DNA from: Candidatus Uhrbacteria bacterium GW2011_GWC2_41_11
Lineage (GTDB): Bacteria > Patescibacteriota > Patescibacteriia > UBA9934 > GWF2-40-263
DNA: 64,000 nt
Direction: 5' to 3'
Assembly: GCA_000996355.1 (NCBI GenBank)
Contig: LCAH01000003.1
Span: 4,228-68,227, forward strand
The notes under the pieces were generated by a model that was given only the letters and a program-made list of their open reading frames with translations, made no database searches and was not told where the DNA came from. The translations under genes were made by a program, and so were the position numbers. This document shows, one piece after another, positions 3,311 through 50,128 of the stretch (positions are counted from its first letter, which is position 1; each line of letters starts with the position of its first letter).

Positions 3311-3387
3311 TGGTGGGCCCGGATGGACTCGAACCATCGACTCCCGAGGTATAAGCTCGGTGCTCTAACCAACTGAGCTACAGGCCC
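3311..3387 (-). tRNA. tRNA-Ile (anticodon UAU), CCA encoded
   Basis: Reverse complement gives gggcctgtagctcagttggttagagcaccgagCTTATACctcgggagtcgatggttcgagtccatccgggcccacca. The anticodon loop cuUAUac reads AUA. Confidence 0.7.
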
Positions 3388-3497: not shown

Positions 3498-4427
3498 ATG
3501 CAGACATGGAATATTCCAGAAACAACGACCCGAAAACGCCTTGATCTTTTTCTTGTTGGAGTTTTAGGGCATTCACGGGCACAAATACAAAAAATCATTA
3601 AAGATGGAATGATTCATATAAATGGGGAAGAAATAAAAAAACCTCATTTTTTCCTTTCATCAGGTGATAAAATTACGTATAAAAAAGGAGTGACTGAGCC
3701 TTCTTTACCTAAAGAAACAAAAAAAATACTTACTATTGTCTATGAAGATAAAAATGTCCTTGTTGTAAATAAACCAGCCGGACTTCTTATTCATACAGCT
3801 GGAGGAAAAGAACAAACACTTGTTGATCTTGTTCTCAAACATACTCCATCCATTCGGACTGTTGGAGAAAATCCAACACGTCCAGGTATTGTACACCGCC
3901 TTGATAAACTGGCATCTGGAGTTATTATTGTTGCAAAAACACAATCAGCTTTTGATTTTTTGAAAATGCAATTTGCAAACCGTCTTGTGGAAAAAGAATA
4001 TCTCGTTCTTGTGTATGGTCAACTTCCAAAAGAGGCTGGAACGATTCGTTTTCCACTCAGTCGATCAAAAAAAACAGGACGCATGTCTGCAAATCCAGAA
4101 GGAACAACAGGAAAAGAAGCTGTGACTCATTACAGAGTTGTTTCCAGATTCAAAACAGCCACATTAGTCAGTGTTCATATTGAAACAGGACGAACGCACC
4201 AAATTCGCGCACACTTCAAAGCGATCGACCATCCAGTTGTCGGCGATCCCCTTTATAAAAAACGCACCATGCGTCACATTCGTCCTATTTCTCTGCCACG
4301 TCTTTTTCTTCATGCACACACACTCACGATCTCTTTACCTGACGAACAACGAAAAACATTCACTGCCCCCCTTCCCGATGAACTCTCTCAACTTTTAACA
4401 ACCCTCCCAACTCCTTCTCTTGTATGA
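3498..4427 (+). CDS. rluD: RluA/RluD-family rRNA pseudouridine synthase with N-terminal S4 domain
   Basis: 309 aa. Catalytic motif HRLDKLASGVIIVAKT and the RluA-family C-terminal HQIRAH segment. Confidence 0.85.
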   Translation: MQTWNIPETTTRKRLDLFLVGVLGHSRAQIQKIIKDGMIHINGEEIKKPHFFLSSGDKITYKKGVTEPSLPKETKKILTIVYEDKNVLVVNKPAGLLIHTAGGKEQTLVDLVLKHTPSIRTVGENPTRPGIVHRLDKLASGVIIVAKTQSAFDFLKMQFANRLVEKEYLVLVYGQLPKEAGTIRFPLSRSKKTGRMSANPEGTTGKEAVTHYRVVSRFKTATLVSVHIETGRTHQIRAHFKAIDHPVVGDPLYKKRTMRHIRPISLPRLFLHAHTLTISLPDEQRKTFTAPLPDELSQLLTTLPTPSLV

Positions 4428-43639: not shown

Positions 43640-44584
43640 ATGGGTTTACCCATTGATCGTGCTATCACAGAATTTCTGGAATACCTCGAAGTTGAACGTG
43701 GTCGATCGCCACGTACAATCCGAAATTATGATTTTTATTTGCGACGATTCGCAACCTGGGCTAAACATCCTGACCCATCTGATATTACTGATGCACTCGT
43801 TCGTCGTTTCAGATTATGGCTTAATCGTTCTCTTCCCGGACGAAGAGATGAGACATTAAAAAAGAATACCCAAAATTATCATCTCATTGCCTTGCGTGCA
43901 TTTTTAAAATTTCTTGCAAGACGAGATATAAAAACACTGGCTCCAGAAAAAATTGAACTTGCTAAACAAAGCACTCGAACAGTTGAATTTTTGGAAGCAG
44001 ATGAACTTGATCGACTACTGAAAGCACCATTTGTAAAAAAAGATTCGTTAATTCGTCGTCGTGATAAAGCGATTCTCGAATTATTTTTTTCTACAGGATT
44101 GCGTGTTTCTGAATTGGCAAATTTACACATTGATCAAATTAATGCCGCACGTGACGAATTCACCGTTCGTGGAAAAGGAGACAAGCCGCGTATTGTTTTT
44201 CTCACTCCCGAAGCAAAATCCTGGATGAAACAATATCTTGATTTGCGTCTAGATACACAACCTTATTTATTTGTTTCTCATGATCGAGCTCGCGAAGGAC
44301 GTGAAACCGTTGGCCCACTTACTCCACGTTCCATTGAACGAATGATTCAGCAATATGCAAAAGCGGTTGGTATTACAAAACGCATTACTCCACACACGAT
44401 GCGCCACACCTTTGCAACAGATCTTTTACTCTCTGGCGCAGACATTCGTTCTGTTCAAGCTCTTTTAGGACATGTTTCTATTACAACGACACAGGTTTAT
44501 ACACACATCACGAACAAACAATTGAAAGAAATTCATCATCAATTTCATGGAAAAACTCGCAAAGGAAAAACAAAAAATTCCTAA
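43640..44584 (+). CDS. xerC: tyrosine site-specific recombinase XerC/XerD family
   Basis: R...HxxR...Y catalytic set, including RHTFATDLL and LLGHVSITTTQVYTH. Confidence 0.85.
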   Translation: MGLPIDRAITEFLEYLEVERGRSPRTIRNYDFYLRRFATWAKHPDPSDITDALVRRFRLWLNRSLPGRRDETLKKNTQNYHLIALRAFLKFLARRDIKTLAPEKIELAKQSTRTVEFLEADELDRLLKAPFVKKDSLIRRRDKAILELFFSTGLRVSELANLHIDQINAARDEFTVRGKGDKPRIVFLTPEAKSWMKQYLDLRLDTQPYLFVSHDRAREGRETVGPLTPRSIERMIQQYAKAVGITKRITPHTMRHTFATDLLLSGADIRSVQALLGHVSITTTQVYTHITNKQLKEIHHQFHGKTRKGKTKNS

Positions 44585-45411
44585 CGTGTTAAAAGATATG
44601 CGATGGCCAATCCGCAAGCAAGAAACGGAATAGCTGGAATACCTGACTTGCGTTTTGTGGCAAAAAAAAGATTTACAAAACCTCCAAAAATGGCACCAAA
44701 TAAACACCACAAAGCACGCAGAATTCCAAACTGAACAGAAACAGCTGTAAGAAAAAGCAGGGGAAGAAAAATATCACCGGACCCCATCGCTGACGCAATG
44801 GATTCAGGTTCAGGAGTATCGCGCCAACGAAATATTTTTTTTGGAACGTATAAAAGAAGCGGCGCACCGATATTCATAAATCCGCGCGCAACTTTAGGAA
44901 TTACATTTGTAAACAAAACACCAAAAATGTCGTAAACTGCAAAAATTCCAAGAAGGGTCAGAAAAAAATCTGCCTGATAAAAAACAGCAAATGACATCGC
45001 AGCCGCGAACACACCAGAAAGAACTAAAAGATTGTTTGTGATAAACGATCGATAGGCACGTTCCACATAAACAAGAAGAACACACACCAAAAATGCAACA
45101 AGTGGTTCAATAAAGACAGATAACGTTCCATACACCATGAATCCAAGCAGAATCGAAACAGCAGGAGCAACCAGACGTTTTCGACGAACCAAATACATAA
45201 GACCTAATGCAAAGAGAACGGAAAAAAGAAGCACAGGAGCATTTTCCAAAAAAGTTGGACGATTTCCAAATGATTGAGTAATAGTTTTTTGTGCATGCGG
45301 AAGCGGAAGATAAAAAAAGATAATCCCTGCAAGCCAAGTAAAAATCGAAAAACATTCCAATATAAAAAAACCGCGCAATCGTTCCAATGAGTCTTGAACC
45401 TTTTGATCCAT
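44581..45411 (-). CDS. presenilin/signal-peptide-peptidase family (A22) intramembrane aspartyl protease homolog
   Basis: Polytopic protein with YD motif (AVYDIFGVLF), GxGD motif (AMGSGDIFLP) and a PAL-like PAIPFL segment in consecutive TM helices. Confidence 0.55.
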   Translation of the reverse strand: MDQKVQDSLERLRGFFILECFSIFTWLAGIIFFYLPLPHAQKTITQSFGNRPTFLENAPVLLFSVLFALGLMYLVRRKRLVAPAVSILLGFMVYGTLSVFIEPLVAFLVCVLLVYVERAYRSFITNNLLVLSGVFAAAMSFAVFYQADFFLTLLGIFAVYDIFGVLFTNVIPKVARGFMNIGAPLLLYVPKKIFRWRDTPEPESIASAMGSGDIFLPLLFLTAVSVQFGILRALWCLFGAIFGGFVNLFFATKRKSGIPAIPFLACGLAIAYLLTR

Positions 45412-45581: not shown

Positions 45582-46247
45582 TCAATTTAATTTTGTTTCA
45601 TCCAAATCAGAAATGGTGAGATTTTCTAAACTCAAACCCTGAAAAGGATCCAGAAGTCTCCGAAATATCTCATGAGCAATAAGTTCGTTTGTCCATGTAC
45701 TCAATGATGCCTTTGTACGACATCCTGGTACAGTAATAGACACGTTTCCATCCTTTTTGAATGAAAGAGACACAACTCCGTGTAATTCCTCATACCTATG
45801 TGCAACTGGACTCACATTCACAAAAACATGTCCTTCAGCCACAAAAAATCGACTTCGCTCATCCATTTGATCGAATACTTGTTTTACATACCGATCAAAC
45901 GGATAGGCTTGTAATCGATAATGAACAGCACTCATATCCAAGAGTCCAACGAATGCCCAAGACTGAAATAACTTCTGAACAGCAAAATTGTTTCTAAATA
46001 TTTCTCTTGGTTGAACGTCATTTCCCTCCTCATCATGCAAACGAAAAACAACTTCGCTCACACGCATGGATGAGTCGTGCGCTGAACACTCAAGAAAAAT
46101 CGTCTGTGGAGAATTCGAGATCGATAATATCTGTATATATCGATTGATCCTTTGTGTAATTTCCTCGTGATGTGGTGAGGTAAATGACTGTATTTCCAAA
46201 AGACCCTTATTTATCACCCCACGAATTCCAATCGTGAATGTGAACAT
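45582..46247 (-). CDS. hypothetical protein (221 aa), unknown family
   Basis: No recognisable motif. It is immediately downstream, on the same strand, of the fusion gene at 46322..47494, 74 nt away. Confidence 0.4.
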   Translation of the reverse strand: MFTFTIGIRGVINKGLLEIQSFTSPHHEEITQRINRYIQILSISNSPQTIFLECSAHDSSMRVSEVVFRLHDEEGNDVQPREIFRNNFAVQKLFQSWAFVGLLDMSAVHYRLQAYPFDRYVKQVFDQMDERSRFFVAEGHVFVNVSPVAHRYEELHGVVSLSFKKDGNVSITVPGCRTKASLSTWTNELIAHEIFRRLLDPFQGLSLENLTISDLDETKLN

Positions 46248-46321: not shown

Positions 46322-47494
46322 CTATGTGCGCAAAATAGTAGATAAAATCATCCCAAGTGTTGCCCAATCAATTTCATTTTGATGAGGAGAAAGAAGATCA
46401 GAAATTTTCCAGAGTTCAATATAGGTTCGTTCTGAGTCGTTTATGACCCCGTGTACCTTTTGTTCGCGTGCCTGTTCCTGTAAACAGAAAAATTCATCAT
46501 CTGATAACTTAACGGAAAATAGATGAGCCTTATGTGCAGATAATGTTCCAGACGTTTGTCTGCTTTCGTGACAACAGACACGGCTTGGATCAAGAGATAA
46601 TCCAATTTCTTCCTTTACTTCCTCCAATGCTAAAGACAAAAAATCTTGAGGAATAAAAGAAGATCCTCCTGGAATTTCATGAATACATCCATCAGACGTA
46701 CTTGCAGGACTTCGAAATTCTCGGATAAAAACAACATCCGTATCTAAAAATGATTCAGTCTGATGATACAAAACAACAACGGAAATATCCGGACGTGCAA
46801 TGACTACTTCATTTGTTTTATGTCTATCCTCACTTGCAATGTAAATATCAACATGAAGAACCCAAAAAAATAAAGTATGTCGTTCATCTCCAGCAAAAAA
46901 TGCCCATTCCTGTTTTGCTCCATCCAGTCGATTTCCTACTTTTTTCTGTGTTTGATACCACTGTTGAAAAGAAGGAGCCTGCCAAATATGAAAAGGGATG
47001 TTGCATTCTCCCCCGGATCGAAGAGTCCCTTCACCGATTTTAGCGACTGCGGTTGCAATCGTTTCAGACAATGTATGATTTTGTGGAATAAATAACCGAT
47101 CTGCATAAAAACTCAGATATCGATTATGGTCAGATTCCGGAGGAAATCCCAAAACGACTTTTCCAGATCTTTCCCAACGACCGAATTCAATATTGGTTGT
47201 GAGACCAGGAAGCGTTTTCATGTTACGCGGGATCCAAAACAGAATGATGTCGGAACGATTGAGGGCTTCATCTTCCCAGCGAACCTGATCCTCAAAAGAA
47301 GGCCATTTTTCATCACGTGGTTCTGGAACAAAAACAACTCCTTCATATCCTTGCTCTTCCAAAATACGAAGTGCTTCCAAACGCCAAGAAACAACATCCG
47401 ATGTTCTTGATGTTGGACCTGCTAAAAAAAGAGATTGTTTGAATGCGGTTGGAAGAGGATCAGTCGAATAAACAGGAATCATAAAATATTTCAA
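46322..47494 (-). CDS. fusion protein: nucleoside 2-deoxyribosyltransferase/DNPH1-like N-glycosidase domain + Nudix hydrolase domain
   Basis: N-domain: LFLAGPTSR ... SDIILFWIP ... LTTNIEFGRW resemble the N-terminal Rossmann and catalytic-Glu motifs of nucleoside 2-deoxyribosyltransferases. C-domain: Nudix box GGSSFIPQDFLSLALEEVKEEIGL. Confidence 0.55.
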   Translation of the reverse strand: MKYFMIPVYSTDPLPTAFKQSLFLAGPTSRTSDVVSWRLEALRILEEQGYEGVVFVPEPRDEKWPSFEDQVRWEDEALNRSDIILFWIPRNMKTLPGLTTNIEFGRWERSGKVVLGFPPESDHNRYLSFYADRLFIPQNHTLSETIATAVAKIGEGTLRSGGECNIPFHIWQAPSFQQWYQTQKKVGNRLDGAKQEWAFFAGDERHTLFFWVLHVDIYIASEDRHKTNEVVIARPDISVVVLYHQTESFLDTDVVFIREFRSPASTSDGCIHEIPGGSSFIPQDFLSLALEEVKEEIGLSLDPSRVCCHESRQTSGTLSAHKAHLFSVKLSDDEFFCLQEQAREQKVHGVINDSERTYIELWKISDLLSPHQNEIDWATLGMILSTILRT

Positions 47495-47579
47495 AACCTT
47501 AGCTCAAATGTATCTTAATATACTTTCTCCATTTTTTACACTTTCTATCTTTATAAATACTCATAATTGTCACATACTA

Positions 47580-47608
47580 TTGACAAAATATTTTAATTGT
47601 GATATTCT
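47580..47608 (+). promoter_or_regulatory. near-consensus sigma70 promoter with extended -10
   Basis: TTGACA, a 17-nt spacer, then TGaTATTCT. Followed by AGGAGG 7 nt before the ATG at 47675. Confidence 0.6.
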
Positions 47609-47674
47609 TAACCGTTCGTTCTTTGGTCGTTATTTCAAAAAAATGGGTCCAAATGACCCACACAGGAGGTTTTC

Positions 47675-48505
47675 ATGTTTCACGCGACTGCCCCACGCCA
47701 CGAAACCACCAATTTTGTCGCTCTCGTCAGCGACCTCGAAGGGTTTCTTTTCAACGGAATCCTCGGTAGGTCACTAACCAAACGACAATATCCCGCGATC
47801 GACAGCGAGTTGATCGCGGCGCGACGAGCCTTCCGCAACGATCCGACCGGTCTCGAGGCGTTCAACAATGCCCGATTCTCGGCCGGCGAGGATGAACTCG
47901 AAATCTACCAGGTTTCGAGCGATATCGTTCTTGCCTGGTACGCCGAGTATCAGGCCGAGCAGGCTCACAAAGCCGCGGAGCTGGCCGAGATCGAGGCAGC
48001 CAAGCAGCTTGCTGCTGAAACCGCTCGAATCGAGGCCGAAAAGCTCGAGGCTGAGCAGAAGGCTGCTGAAGCCAAGGTTGAGCAGGAACGGCAGGCGAAG
48101 ATGCGTCGCAACGCCCTGCTCCAGGCCGGAGCCGTCTGTACGTGTGGCAACTGTCACACGCAGATGGTTGTCCGATATGGACGTTTGCCGTCCGTCGGAT
48201 TCATGCGGCAAGAGCTCGGTCGCGAGCCGACTGTGGCGGATCTGACGAAGTTCGTCCGGTTCGCAGGTCACGCTGGTTCGCGAGGATATCCGTTCGAAGA
48301 TATCCTCGACGAGGTTCTCTCAAGTGAGAATCAGGCGACCCCGGCTGCTCCGAAATCGACGGTGCAGGCAAAGCAGCCGGCGGCCGCCCAGTCGATGTTC
48401 CGCAAATCAACCACCACCCCCCCGGCCAAGGCTGAAAAACCGCGGTCGGTCAGTGGATTCGGAAGCCTGGGGAGTCTCTTCCCCACGGTTGCCAAAATTT
48501 TCTAA
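47675..48505 (+). CDS. GC-rich (~60%) hypothetical coiled-coil protein with CxCGxC motif; likely horizontally acquired
   Basis: 276-aa ORF whose composition is very different from its flanks. A/E/K-rich heptad segment and CTCGNCH. Several overlapping antisense ORFs are open-frame artefacts of the high GC. Confidence 0.55.
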   Translation: MFHATAPRHETTNFVALVSDLEGFLFNGILGRSLTKRQYPAIDSELIAARRAFRNDPTGLEAFNNARFSAGEDELEIYQVSSDIVLAWYAEYQAEQAHKAAELAEIEAAKQLAAETARIEAEKLEAEQKAAEAKVEQERQAKMRRNALLQAGAVCTCGNCHTQMVVRYGRLPSVGFMRQELGREPTVADLTKFVRFAGHAGSRGYPFEDILDEVLSSENQATPAAPKSTVQAKQPAAAQSMFRKSTTTPPAKAEKPRSVSGFGSLGSLFPTVAKIF

Positions 48506-48510
48506 AACCT

Positions 48511-48552
48511 AAGTCGTCCGTGCAGTTTCTTGCATCGGACGACTTTTGTTTT
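48511..48552 (+). terminator. rho-independent terminator of GC-rich gene
   Basis: agtcgtccgtgcagtttcttgcatcggacgact followed by TTTTGTTTT. Confidence 0.65.
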
Positions 48553-48588
48553 AATAAGAATTTTTTCATTTTGCCCATTTTGGGCTTA

Positions 48589-48656
48589 CCATGCACCATC
48601 TGGTGCATGGCTTACGGGGACCCCAGTTTTTCTCGCTGTACTTGATTGAGTACAGC
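48589..48656. repeat. two perfect palindromes in intergenic region
   Basis: ccatgcacca-tc-tggtgcatgg (10-bp arms) and gctgtact-tgattg-agtacagc (8-bp arms). Confidence 0.5.
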
Positions 48657-48683
48657 TCGATAAAACTCTATTATATATAAAAA

Positions 48684-48704
48684 CTTGGTGCTGATTACAC
48701 CAAG
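48684..48704 (-). terminator. terminator hairpin of sigma-factor gene, overlapping its stop codon
   Basis: cttggtgctgattacaccaag with the TAA in the loop. T-run on the minus strand (tttttatatata). Confidence 0.55.
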
Positions 48705-49759
48705 CTTACAATTTTCTGAAGTTCCTCTGCGGTTCGAATGAGGCGAAACATTCTTGCCCGAGGCACACCCGTTATCCTCTCAAGTCTCTTTAACTCAAGA
48801 TTTTCTATTTGTCGAACACGTTCTTTTGAAAGATCAAAACGATCTCCCAAACTTTTTAGTGTTTCTTTTTCATACCCAGGTAACCCGAGCCGATGTCGAA
48901 CAATAACCGCTGAACGTTCATGAAATTTGGAAATGCATTGATCAATTCTTCCGAGTTCCAGAAGAATTTCTTCCAGACGTTGTTTTACCTCCATCCAAAC
49001 GTCCTGCGGACAAACTTGCGGATCAGGAATCATATCGTAGAGCCACGAGGTGTCCGAGGTATCTTCTGCATGAGGAGAAGAGTCTAAAGAAACAACATGT
49101 TCATTCAACATAATCAATATTCGCTCCACATCCGCACGTTCAGGAGACTTTTTCTTTTTGACTGGTTTGTCTGTTGATTTCCATCCAGTCTTTTTCCAAC
49201 GTTCTTCAGCCTTATGTTGCTGTTCCTCTAAAACAACATGAAGAATTTCCTCTGAACTTGGATTTCTTCCCAAGTGTTGAAATAACCGTTGCTGAATGAC
49301 CTGAACCTCGAAAAAGACACGCTGTATTCCAGATGGACATCGGATGAGACCTCCATTCCATGCTTCTTTGGATTGAGCCCGAATAATCATGGCGCGAATC
49401 CACCAATCAGCGTATGTCCCAAAATGTACCTCACGACGGAAATCAAATCTTGTTGCAGCAACGAGCAAACCAATGTTTCCCTCTTGAATACGATCCATAA
49501 ATGGAAGACGATGACCAAATCGTCCGGCAATATAAATCACAAGAGGAAGATTATGAACAGCCACTTTCCATCGTAGACGAATATTTTCCTCAGGCGATGA
49601 TTCCTCCGCTTCGACAAAACAAGCCTGCTCTTCTTGAAAAGATAGACGTCGATAGTGACTCATAGATCTTTTATATCGAATAAAAAGATCCGAGGTTTCG
49701 AAATTTTTGAGGTCTTCCTTATCAATTTCTTCCGAAAACATGACAATTGTTTGATCCAT
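48695..49759 (-). CDS. RNA polymerase sigma-70 family factor (RpoD-like; regions 2-4, K-rich insertion)
   Basis: Region 2 IYIAGRFGHRLPFMDRIQEGNIGLLVAATRFDFRREVHFGTYADWWIR. Region 4 HTH LKSLGDRFDLSKERVRQIENLELKRL. ATG at 49759 with a GGAGG RBS. Confidence 0.75.
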   Translation of the reverse strand: MDQTIVMFSEEIDKEDLKNFETSDLFIRYKRSMSHYRRLSFQEEQACFVEAEESSPEENIRLRWKVAVHNLPLVIYIAGRFGHRLPFMDRIQEGNIGLLVAATRFDFRREVHFGTYADWWIRAMIIRAQSKEAWNGGLIRCPSGIQRVFFEVQVIQQRLFQHLGRNPSSEEILHVVLEEQQHKAEERWKKTGWKSTDKPVKKKKSPERADVERILIMLNEHVVSLDSSPHAEDTSDTSWLYDMIPDPQVCPQDVWMEVKQRLEEILLELGRIDQCISKFHERSAVIVRHRLGLPGYEKETLKSLGDRFDLSKERVRQIENLELKRLERITGVPRARMFRLIRTAEELQKIVSLV

Positions 49760-49905
49760 GTCTGACCTCCAAAAAAAGGAGAATATTTCTTTGTAAAAAG
49801 AAACGAAAATTCTGAAAAAATCAGAATAAGGATATCTAGCCAAAAAATGAAGAAAAAATCAACCCAAACAAAAAATCCCTCCATTTAATAAAGAGAGATT
49901 CTTTG

Positions 49906-49981
49906 TGGGGCGATCACCGGGAATCGAACCCGGATCAGGAGAGCCACAATCTCCTGTGTTAACCATTACACCATGACCGCC
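49906..49981 (-). tRNA. tRNA-His (anticodon GUG) with extra 5' G
   Basis: Reverse complement ggcggtcatggtgtaatggttaacacaggagattGTGgctctcctg...cccca. Confidence 0.85.
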
Positions 49982-50128
49982 GTGTTGTTTGTGTCAAATA
50001 CTGTCAACTTGGCAAAGAATACGTGAAATAAAACCTTCTGTCAATTCGTTTAAAAGAAAGAAGTTTGTTATCTTTACGTCTTTTATTCCTTCTTGTACCC
50101 TAATGGCACATTGTGAGAGGATCTACAT

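Follow-up and report, generated by a model that had tools for sequence, protein, structure and literature searches.

In the 64,000-nucleotide window analysed here, which comes from contig LCAH01000003.1 of Candidatus Uhrbacteria bacterium GW2011_GWC2_41_11 (positions 4,228 to 68,227), one minus-strand gene encodes a protein with a nucleoside 2-deoxyribosyltransferase (NDT)-like domain in its N-terminal half and a Nudix hydrolase domain in its C-terminal half. The open reading frame (ORF) is uninterrupted at 46322..47494 and has 390 amino acids if counted from the TTG at 47494. The database protein P0001, of 386 amino acids, shows 100% identity to the fusion protein, and the N-termini of all aligned homologs match the ATG at 47482 (MIPVYS...). 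Since P0001 and the aligned homologs begin at this ATG, the true coding sequence (CDS) is probably 46322-47482 (Table 1). NCBI lists P0001 under "Candidatus Schekmanbacteria bacterium GWA2_38_11" as a hypothetical protein. The two halves share one frame with no stop codon between them, and the motifs FLAGP, LTTNIEFGRW, and GSSFIPQDFLSLALEEVKEEIGL are all found in the translation. The initial annotation of this DNA had proposed a fusion gene at this position. The proposal is borne out by the single frame and by the same full-length architecture in more than 1000 database proteins, and we found neither an unrelated fold in the N-terminal half nor a division of the two halves between separate frames.

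Table 1. Features of the fusion gene and its immediate surroundings in the window (amino acids counted from the TTG at 47494)
Feature	Position	Strand	Amino acids	Basis or remark
NDT-like/Nudix fusion CDS	46322..47482	-	386 in total, from ATG	ORF list, P0001 identity, homolog N-termini, checked translation
N-terminal DNPH1/MilB/NDT-like (PF15891) N-glycosidase domain	47030..47482	-	5-155	Pfam, model, Foldseek
LTTNIEFGRW motif	47174..47203	-		Translation; predicted catalytic E103, codon 47186-47188
Family-specific helical linker	46931..47029	-	156-188	Secondary structure of full model; conservation counts
N-terminal beta-sheet subdomain of ADP-ribose pyrophosphatase-type Nudix module	46763..46930	-	189-244	Model strands
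Nudix catalytic core	46325..46762	-	245-390	Foldseek vs PDB; profile matches
Degenerate Nudix box GSSFIPQDFLSLALEEVKEEIGL	46598..46666	-	277-299	Translation
Upstream intergenic/promoter region	47483..47674	.		Sequence, inverted repeats, promoter-like hexamers
Orphan gene 3′ of fusion gene	45582..46247	-	221 in total	74-nt gap; ORF list

It is evident that the N-terminal half belongs to the NDT/DNPH1/MilB superfamily, as had been read from its motifs in the initial annotation. The Pfam family PF15891 (Nuc_deoxyri_tr2) matches amino acids 20-119 with a score of 51.3 bits (cut-off 30; E = 1.6e-13), and the alignment spans positions 2-103 of the 105 positions of the profile. For the first 158 residues, modelled separately (pLDDT 91.4), the best Foldseek match is 4mcj (E = 3e-9, TM 0.76-0.79), followed by MilB (TM 0.6-0.66), YtoQ, TIR domains, Rcl/DNPH1, and true NDTs, with MilB, YtoQ, Rcl, and the NDTs all at a probability of at least 0.99. 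The model confirms for this domain the three-layer alpha/beta Rossmann-like fold common to the solved NDT, DNPH1, and MilB members. 4mcj (BDI_0649), the closest solved relative, is itself uncharacterised ("putative nucleoside deoxyribosyltransferase"). Like MilB, DNPH1 (Rcl), the NDTs, and 4mcj, the N-terminal half has a T-x-x-E-x-G loop that holds the catalytic Glu, here predicted as E103, and a conserved Asp that precedes it by one strand. Among 260 full-length relatives that are 38-54% identical to the query, which are the basis of all conservation counts given here, E103 is kept in 256 and D82 in all 260, and T99, T100, N101, and G105 are near-invariant. E103 aligns with the Glu of "LLEMG" in 4mcj, and from motif likeness we take E103 and D82 to be the counterparts of Glu98 and Asp72 of NDTs and of the DNPH1 Glu. 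R30, R38, R90, and K112 are candidate phosphate-binding residues. MilB and DNPH1 hydrolyse nucleotide 5′-monophosphates to the base and (deoxy)ribose-5-phosphate. The modelled N-terminal half most resembles such nucleotide N-glycosidases, and a glycosidase activity is predicted for it. It shares 17-19% identity with MilB and Rcl, whose substrates, hydroxymethyl-CMP (hmCMP) and deoxynucleoside monophosphates (dNMPs), belong to antibiotic biosynthesis or nucleotide catabolism and not to the metabolism of nicotinamide adenine dinucleotide (NAD).

The linker has eight near-invariant residues among the 260 homologs (R159, E163, W171, F176, Q177, W179, G187, and N188) and may lie at an inter-domain or substrate site. 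The full-length model (pLDDT 91.7, pTM 0.85) gives 268 PDB matches by Foldseek at E ≤ 1e-3, and the top 50 are all Nudix enzymes. Residues ~185-390 superpose on the whole of Klebsiella and E. coli NudF (9b1z and 1g0s), NudK (a GDP-mannose hydrolase), and human NUDT5 (E 3e-11 to 1e-9, probability 1.00, TMt 0.64-0.75), with ~200-214 aligned columns across the entire chains of 175-205 amino acids and with the N-terminal beta subdomain included. When the family profile was compared with PDB, NUDT5 and other ADP-ribose pyrophosphatases (ADPRases) were matched weakly (E 1e-3 to 1e-2), and in the profile alignment "LIREFRSP...E.PGGS" aligns with "LVKQFRPP...EFPAG" of NUDT5. The assignment of the C-terminal half to the Nudix hydrolases, made in the initial annotation, thus agrees with the structure match and, more weakly, with the profile. 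NudF, NudK, and NUDT5 have in common with this module both subdomains, the "(Q/E)FR(P/S)P ... E.P(A/G)G" segment, and the glutamates of the Nudix helix; they differ in that identity is 11-18% and in that the module is here fused to a second enzyme. Among the helix glutamates, E292 and E296 are kept in 260 of 260 homologs and E295 in 246 (Gln in 11); G277 is kept in all 260, G298 is conserved, and E259, R261, and E355 are each kept in 259. Nudix catalysis is plausible because the metal-binding residues E292, E295, and E296, together with G277 and G298, are conserved. By its model the C-terminal half has a Nudix fold most like that of ADPRases, and hydrolysis of ADP-ribose is predicted. Both halves look like working enzymes because their catalytic residues are kept across the 260 relatives.

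The fusion had been considered unusual. Its architecture is instead widespread and encoded by one gene. A word-indexed search found 1023 proteins, nearly all 380-400 amino acids long, with 97-99% coverage and ~50% identity, and an exhaustive profile search found 2224 clusters at 50% identity, 921 of them with E ≤ 1e-30. At least 585 GTDB species carry the fusion (one genome was scanned per species), and it is also present in phages. Most carriers are Patescibacteria, including Saccharibacteria, Parcubacteria/Paceibacterota, and Yanofsky-, Falkow-, Moran-, and Buchananbacteria; others are Myxococcota (Enhygromyxa salina), actinomycetes (Actinomadura, Crossiella, and Spirillospora), Shimazuella alba, and Planctomycetota. 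No NCBIfam model matches the fusion protein, the PHROGs search gave marginal matches only, and the source annotations read "hypothetical", "NUDIX hydrolase", or "MutT". The domain pair is visible in databases, and in our literature search one paper flagged one member, that of Bacillus phage G; apart from this mention we found no paper on the fusion family, and none that links it to an NrtR/NAD salvage cluster. Fusions of an ADPRase with an NAD-recycling enzyme are already known; an N-glycosidase as the partner domain would be new.

We then examined the gene neighbourhoods of 84 homologs and the window (85 loci in total). Their 1381 neighbours were clustered by all-against-all BLASTP, recurrent clusters were annotated with Pfam and NCBIfam, and core NAD genes were counted within 10 kb. 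Every recurrent neighbour family found by this unbiased clustering is NAD-related. These families are PncB (nicotinate phosphoribosyltransferase, NAPRTase; 18 loci, plus 4 loci with a second NAPRTase type), PncA (nicotinamidase/isochorismatase; 17 loci), NadE (15), NrtR (Nudix plus NrtR winged helix; 13), the NAD kinase NadK (12), NadD (11), ADP-ribosylglycohydrolase (ARH; 10), a radical SAM protein (7), NadA (7), and a CobC-like histidine phosphatase (4). At least one core NAD gene is present in 26 of the 85 loci and at least three are present in 20. The NAD-positive loci are all of the Patescibacteria type and make up about half of the Patescibacteria loci sampled. In these loci the fusion gene lies within the NAD cluster and on the same strand as the cluster genes, usually in the order (ARH)-fusion gene-PncA-PncB (L020, L029, L039, L054, L068, L078, and L079); in L042 the order is NadE-NrtR-radical SAM-PncA-PncB-fusion gene-NadA-NadD. 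Two separate look-ups of individual loci gave the same pattern. An NAD cluster makes up ~2% of a genome of ~1 Mb by our own rough estimate, and the association is on this estimate far above chance. The initial annotation had placed such domain pairs among signalling or conflict modules, with defence genes to be sought near homologs. Across the 85 loci no defence family recurs and NAD genes alone do; a toxin-antitoxin/Abi-like island with HEPN_AbiV, SocA, and Fic genes surrounds one homolog. Other contexts found with single homologs are a transposase, SmpB, and thymidylate synthase with DHFR and IMPDH.

A de novo palindrome search upstream of the NAD genes in the loci that contain NrtR found TAGTGT-N7-ACACTA, which extends to the 21-bp WTAGTGTA-N5-TACACTAW. 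The palindrome contains the GT-N7-AC core described for NrtR operators by Rodionov et al. (PMC2330246). With one mismatch allowed, the 1.37 Mb of genome loci contain 45 copies of it, spread over 24 loci and nearly all before NAD genes, against one copy in 1.29 Mb of viral loci taken as a control. In L023, L038 (two sites), L043, and L083 a copy stands upstream of the fusion gene at a distance of 17-93 nt; in L061 and L078 it precedes an ARH gene that is followed by the fusion gene. Other copies lie upstream of NadE/NadK (divergent), PncA, PncB, NadA, NadD, NrtR, and ARH, and the loci with palindromes include L034, L038, L042, L043, L047, L061, L068, L079, and L083. WTAGTGTA-N5-TACACTAW is the predicted NrtR operator of Patescibacteria, and because it stands upstream of the fusion gene, the NrtR regulon of several of them is predicted to include this gene.

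Some further observations concern the contents of these loci. NadA is present in the NAD clusters of L020, L039, L042, L061, L068, L078, and L079, and neither NadB nor NadC recurs within 10 kb. Some NAD clusters contain a MoaA/viperin-like radical SAM protein (~298 amino acids), a CobC-like histidine phosphatase (~272 amino acids), and a 327-amino-acid protein (L007 7235-10166; L011 6604-7626 and 11323-13100; L019 6331-7278 and 11295-12916). The 327-amino-acid protein has a Nudix-like EEEAGL helix; it was considered as a paralog of the C-terminal half and rejected, the similarity being generic (hhalign probability 17%). The neighbours in Actinomadura, Shimazuella, and Enhygromyxa, outside the candidate phyla radiation (CPR), encode Der GTPase, nitric-oxide synthase, DUF2169, TetR, and hydrolase proteins and have no common theme. 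In three actinomycetes a nitric-oxide synthase oxygenase gene lies directly 3′ of the fusion homolog (L075 11688-12863, L082 11200-12582, and L085 11571-12872; PF02898 with E = 3e-153 in L082).

We lean towards reading the fusion protein as a bifunctional enzyme of the pyridine nucleotide cycle, by which NAD is recycled. The C-terminal Nudix domain would split the pyrophosphate of ADP-ribose into AMP and ribose-5-phosphate, or NAD(H) into AMP and nicotinamide mononucleotide (NMN), and the N-terminal half would use E103 to cut the N-glycosidic bond of NMN or NAD+ and free nicotinamide. In either order, the net reaction would convert NAD (or NMN and ADP-ribose) and water into nicotinamide, AMP, and ribose-5-phosphate, and the nicotinamide would then enter the PncA-PncB-NadD-NadE route to NAD. 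Nicotinamide is suggested as the product because the fusion gene stands directly before PncA-PncB. In many Patescibacteria the gene would be co-transcribed with NAD genes under the ADP-ribose-responsive repressor NrtR, and removal of ADP-ribose would also reset NrtR repression. ADP-ribose suppresses the binding of NrtR to DNA in vitro and is deemed its likeliest effector (PMC2330246). NMN is a by-product of NAD-dependent DNA ligase, and ADP-ribose and nicotinamide arise from ADP-ribosyl transfer, sirtuins, and glycohydrolases (PMC4246079, PMC2330246). The architecture, both folds, the conserved catalytic residues, the clustering with NAD genes, and the NrtR-type operators are results of the analysis, from which we infer what is cleaved and in which order. 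The idea of the initial annotation that one enzyme both deglycosylates and pyrophosphohydrolyses survives in this proposal, with NAD, NMN, and ADP-ribose as the likely substrates in place of a signalling or modified nucleotide. By homology (~50% identity to the clustered copies), the same role would extend to the isolated copy in the window.

Two known fusions are comparable with this proposal. CinA joins a COG1058 ADP-ribose pyrophosphatase to the NMN deamidase PncC (PMC4246079) and is the closest functional analogue, in that a single polypeptide combines an ADPRase and an NMN-processing enzyme for the pyridine nucleotide cycle. Both of its domains are unrelated in fold to those of the fusion protein, its ADPRase being COG1058/MoCF-like and not Nudix; CinA deamidates NMN, whereas the N-terminal half here is proposed to cut the glycosidic bond, and the CinA activities are proven whereas ours are predicted. 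NadM-Nudix, an NMN adenylyltransferase fused to an ADPRase Nudix domain, is found in NrtR-controlled NAD clusters (PMC2330246). It shares with the present family the fusion of a Nudix ADPRase to an NAD-pathway enzyme and the location among NrtR-controlled NAD genes. Its partner domain is a synthetic adenylyltransferase and not a degradative N-glycosidase, and the Nudix domain of our protein is C-terminal and N-terminally extended as in NudF and NUDT5.

Several results weigh against NAD recycling. PF00293, precomputed for some homologs, is not matched in the fusion protein at E ≤ 1, and so among the Pfam families suggested in the initial annotation PF15891 was recovered and this one was not. 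The Nudix box, which had been called clear, keeps the spacing of the canonical G-x5-E-x7-R-E-U-x-E-E-x-G-U and the glutamates E292, E295, and E296, but has Gln in place of the first Glu and Glu in place of the Arg of "RE"; across the family the latter position (291) can hold D, E, H, or A, and a one-residue insertion in the box is present in most members. ADPRases have a signature Pro ~16 residues past the Nudix box. This Pro is absent here, where the residues that follow the box are SLDPSRVCCHESRQTSGTLSAH, and the family consensus R-Q-x-x-A-T-L-S-A-H has no conserved Pro at that position. The nearest characterised relatives of the N-terminal domain act on CMP/hmCMP and dNMPs, and not on NMN or NAD. 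About 70% of the sampled loci have no NAD genes or NrtR site nearby, and this holds for all the Myxococcota, Actinomycetota, and Planctomycetota copies. Some clusters already encode another ADPRase, such as the NadM-Nudix of L007. In the 64-kb window itself, tblastn found no NAD gene and the search for the NrtR palindrome gave only two chance-level matches, far from the fusion gene. Because the window is negative for both, the NAD link rests on homologs elsewhere. Gene clustering points to a pathway and not to an exact reaction, and the NAD role of the whole family is one that we infer from context, folds, and conservation.

A different use of the same two activities would be disposal of ADP-ribose, in which the Nudix domain yields AMP and ribose-5-phosphate and the N-terminal half, as an AMP (purine nucleotide) nucleosidase, releases adenine and a second ribose-5-phosphate. 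DNPH1/Rcl, a fold relative matched by Foldseek, prefers purine nucleotides. The ADP-ribose would come from ARH, sirtuins, or NADases, and its removal would clear the NrtR effector and feed the pentose-phosphate and phosphoribosyl pyrophosphate (PRPP) pools. The ADPRase-like Nudix fold and the ARH gene that frequently adjoins the fusion gene fit this scheme, and ADP-ribose, ribose-5-phosphate, and PRPP have been tied to NrtR regulons (PMC2330246). We nevertheless regard it as unlikely: the commonest immediate neighbours are PncA and PncB, whose sole input is nicotinamide or nicotinate, adenine salvage genes do not recur in the 85 loci, and the scheme would not account for a glycosidase and an ADPRase that stay joined in more than 900 sequence clusters.

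Less probable still is sanitation or catabolism of the nucleotide pool, where a MutT-like Nudix enzyme would make (d)NMPs from aberrant or surplus (d)NTPs or NDP-X and a DNPH1-like hydrolase would split these into base and (deoxy)ribose-5-phosphate, as housekeeping salvage in nucleotide scavengers. The PF15891 match, the fold likeness to DNPH1/Rcl and NDTs, and the JGI auto-annotation "MutT" are in keeping with it, as are the housekeeping context in the window (ribosomal protein S6, tRNAs, a sigma factor, and a XerC-like recombinase) and the one homolog among thymidylate synthase, DHFR, and IMPDH genes. However, the Nudix half matches the two-subdomain ADP-sugar pyrophosphatases and not the small MutT type, and the genes that recur beside homologs are those of NAD and not of nucleotide metabolism.

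The family also extends to viruses. Gp334 of Bacillus phage G (AEO93593.1, L168 7965-9155, annotated as "NUDIX hydrolase") is the same two-domain protein, with 43% identity over 98% of the length, and its gene lies between DNA polymerase III-like genes. Relatives are also encoded at 171 IMG/VR loci, and many of the contigs concerned are 300-600 kb long, with viral status as labelled by that database. At least 15 viral contigs encode the N-terminal domain alone with no Nudix gene adjacent. The 412-amino-acid "Nudix hydrolase" of Klosneuvirus KNV1 (BFVD A0A1V0SJZ7) shares the N-domain fold. Neither a PncA/PncB cluster nor the Patescibacteria operator was found in the viral loci. The stand-alone N-terminal domains (L145-L167, for example L163 7926-8411 and L157 7443-8447) are 150-185 amino acids long and 40-50% identical to the N-terminal half, and one stand-alone form has 334 amino acids with an additional N-terminal region; that they are split genes was rejected, as no Nudix half lies next door. 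On ten IMG/VR contigs (L099-L103, L108, L118, L119, L125, and L148) the gene for an NrtR-like Nudix/winged-helix protein lies a few kb from the homolog, and these contigs have neither the Patescibacteria operator motif nor PncA/PncB genes.

The viral copies bear on the relation to NAD-cleaving enzymes. PMC9503650 lists NAD-cleaving members in this superfamily (the DrHyd-TIR-SLOG class), places CD38 there, and names AEO93593.1 as a viral DrHyd domain that acts on NAD and is a predicted ADP-ribosyl cyclase (ARC). CD38 hydrolyses NMN to nicotinamide (PMC11903787). CD38, ARC, and the TIR NADases resemble the N-terminal half in their related fold class and in a catalytic Glu, which in these enzymes cuts the nicotinamide-ribose bond; they differ in that no cyclase is among the top 50 Foldseek matches, the TIR matches are weak (TM ~0.45-0.5), and the cellular homologs here have metabolic neighbours instead of a signalling or immune context. 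A conflict function would make the protein an NAD-depleting effector, an ARC-like generator of ADP-ribose-derived signals, or an enzyme that degrades these signals, at work between phages and their hosts. The viral occurrences (phage G, the 171 IMG/VR loci, and the Klosneuvirus fold) lend it some weight, and the ARC prediction for AEO93593.1 and the homolog beside HEPN_AbiV, SocA, and Fic genes are consistent with it. It is nevertheless very improbable, given that PADLOC has no defence model for the fusion protein (only a spurious 12-bit JetC match) or for ten window neighbours (only generic methyltransferase, sigma-factor, and PolA matches), that defence genes do not recur around cellular homologs, that there is neither an ADP-ribosyl cyclase among the top 50 Foldseek matches nor a sensor or partner gene, and that a gene transcribed together with NAD biosynthesis genes under NrtR is the reverse of what a suicide effector, kept under tight control, would require. 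NAD recycling is more likely than defence because about half of the sampled CPR loci place the gene in an NAD salvage cluster, although in phages and giant viruses their own copies may still have some part in conflict.

Around the fusion gene in the window, the other genes are housekeeping genes, for ribosomal protein S6, an RlmKL-type methyltransferase, a XerC-like recombinase, a presenilin-like membrane protein, tRNA-Arg, a sigma-70 factor, and tRNA-His. The 221-amino-acid orphan gene 3′ of the fusion gene has no Pfam, NCBIfam, or PADLOC match and is in no recurrent neighbour cluster of the homolog loci. It is probably co-transcribed with the fusion gene, because the sole terminator-like hairpin (45573-45557) follows the orphan and not the fusion gene. 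In the upstream region, the perfect inverted repeat TTGTCA-N8-TGACAA at 47567-47586 overlaps promoter-like hexamers 5′ of the fusion gene and may be a candidate operator of another regulator. A divergent ORF at 47675-48505 (+) encodes 276 amino acids with a high content of Ala, Glu, Lys, and Gln. It is matched by no Pfam, NCBIfam, or PADLOC model, and the DNA around it is locally GC-richer (0.457 at 48001-50000 versus ~0.39 nearby). The multi-pass membrane protein at 44581-45411 (-) shows a weak presenilin/signal-peptide-peptidase match (PF06550, E = 3e-5, just above the cut-off), a family whose occurrence in bacteria is unexpected. A tRNA-Ile with the anticodon UAU (tat) is encoded at 3311-3387 (-). 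In most bacteria AUA is decoded by a tRNA whose CAU anticodon is modified to lysidine, and a UAU tRNA-Ile is uncommon.

The proposed NAD-recycling function can be taken one tentative step further. NMN glycohydrolase activity (EC 3.2.2.14) is known biochemically, and to our knowledge no bacterial gene has been assigned to it. The N-terminal domain may be this NMN (or NAD+) glycohydrolase, long missing in bacteria from the classical pyridine nucleotide cycle of six steps, and here fused to an ADPRase. On the same tentative footing, the family might represent a third independent fusion of an ADPRase with an NMN enzyme, after CinA and NadM-Nudix, under NrtR control in Patescibacteria, and might have been taken up by jumbo phages, and perhaps giant viruses, where it would reshape host NAD pools. 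If the fusion protein recycles NAD, a function would be given to a large unannotated family (~900 clusters in at least 585 species, with no NCBIfam model), and the step that releases nicotinamide for PncA would gain a candidate gene in organisms in whose NAD clusters neither an NMN deamidase nor an NMN adenylyltransferase is seen. It would also explain how the ultra-small episymbiotic Patescibacteria recycle the NMN from DNA ligase and the ADP-ribose from ADP-ribosyl transfer, and the phage G protein and the similar Klosneuvirus protein would connect ordinary NAD recycling to the virus-host arms race over NAD.

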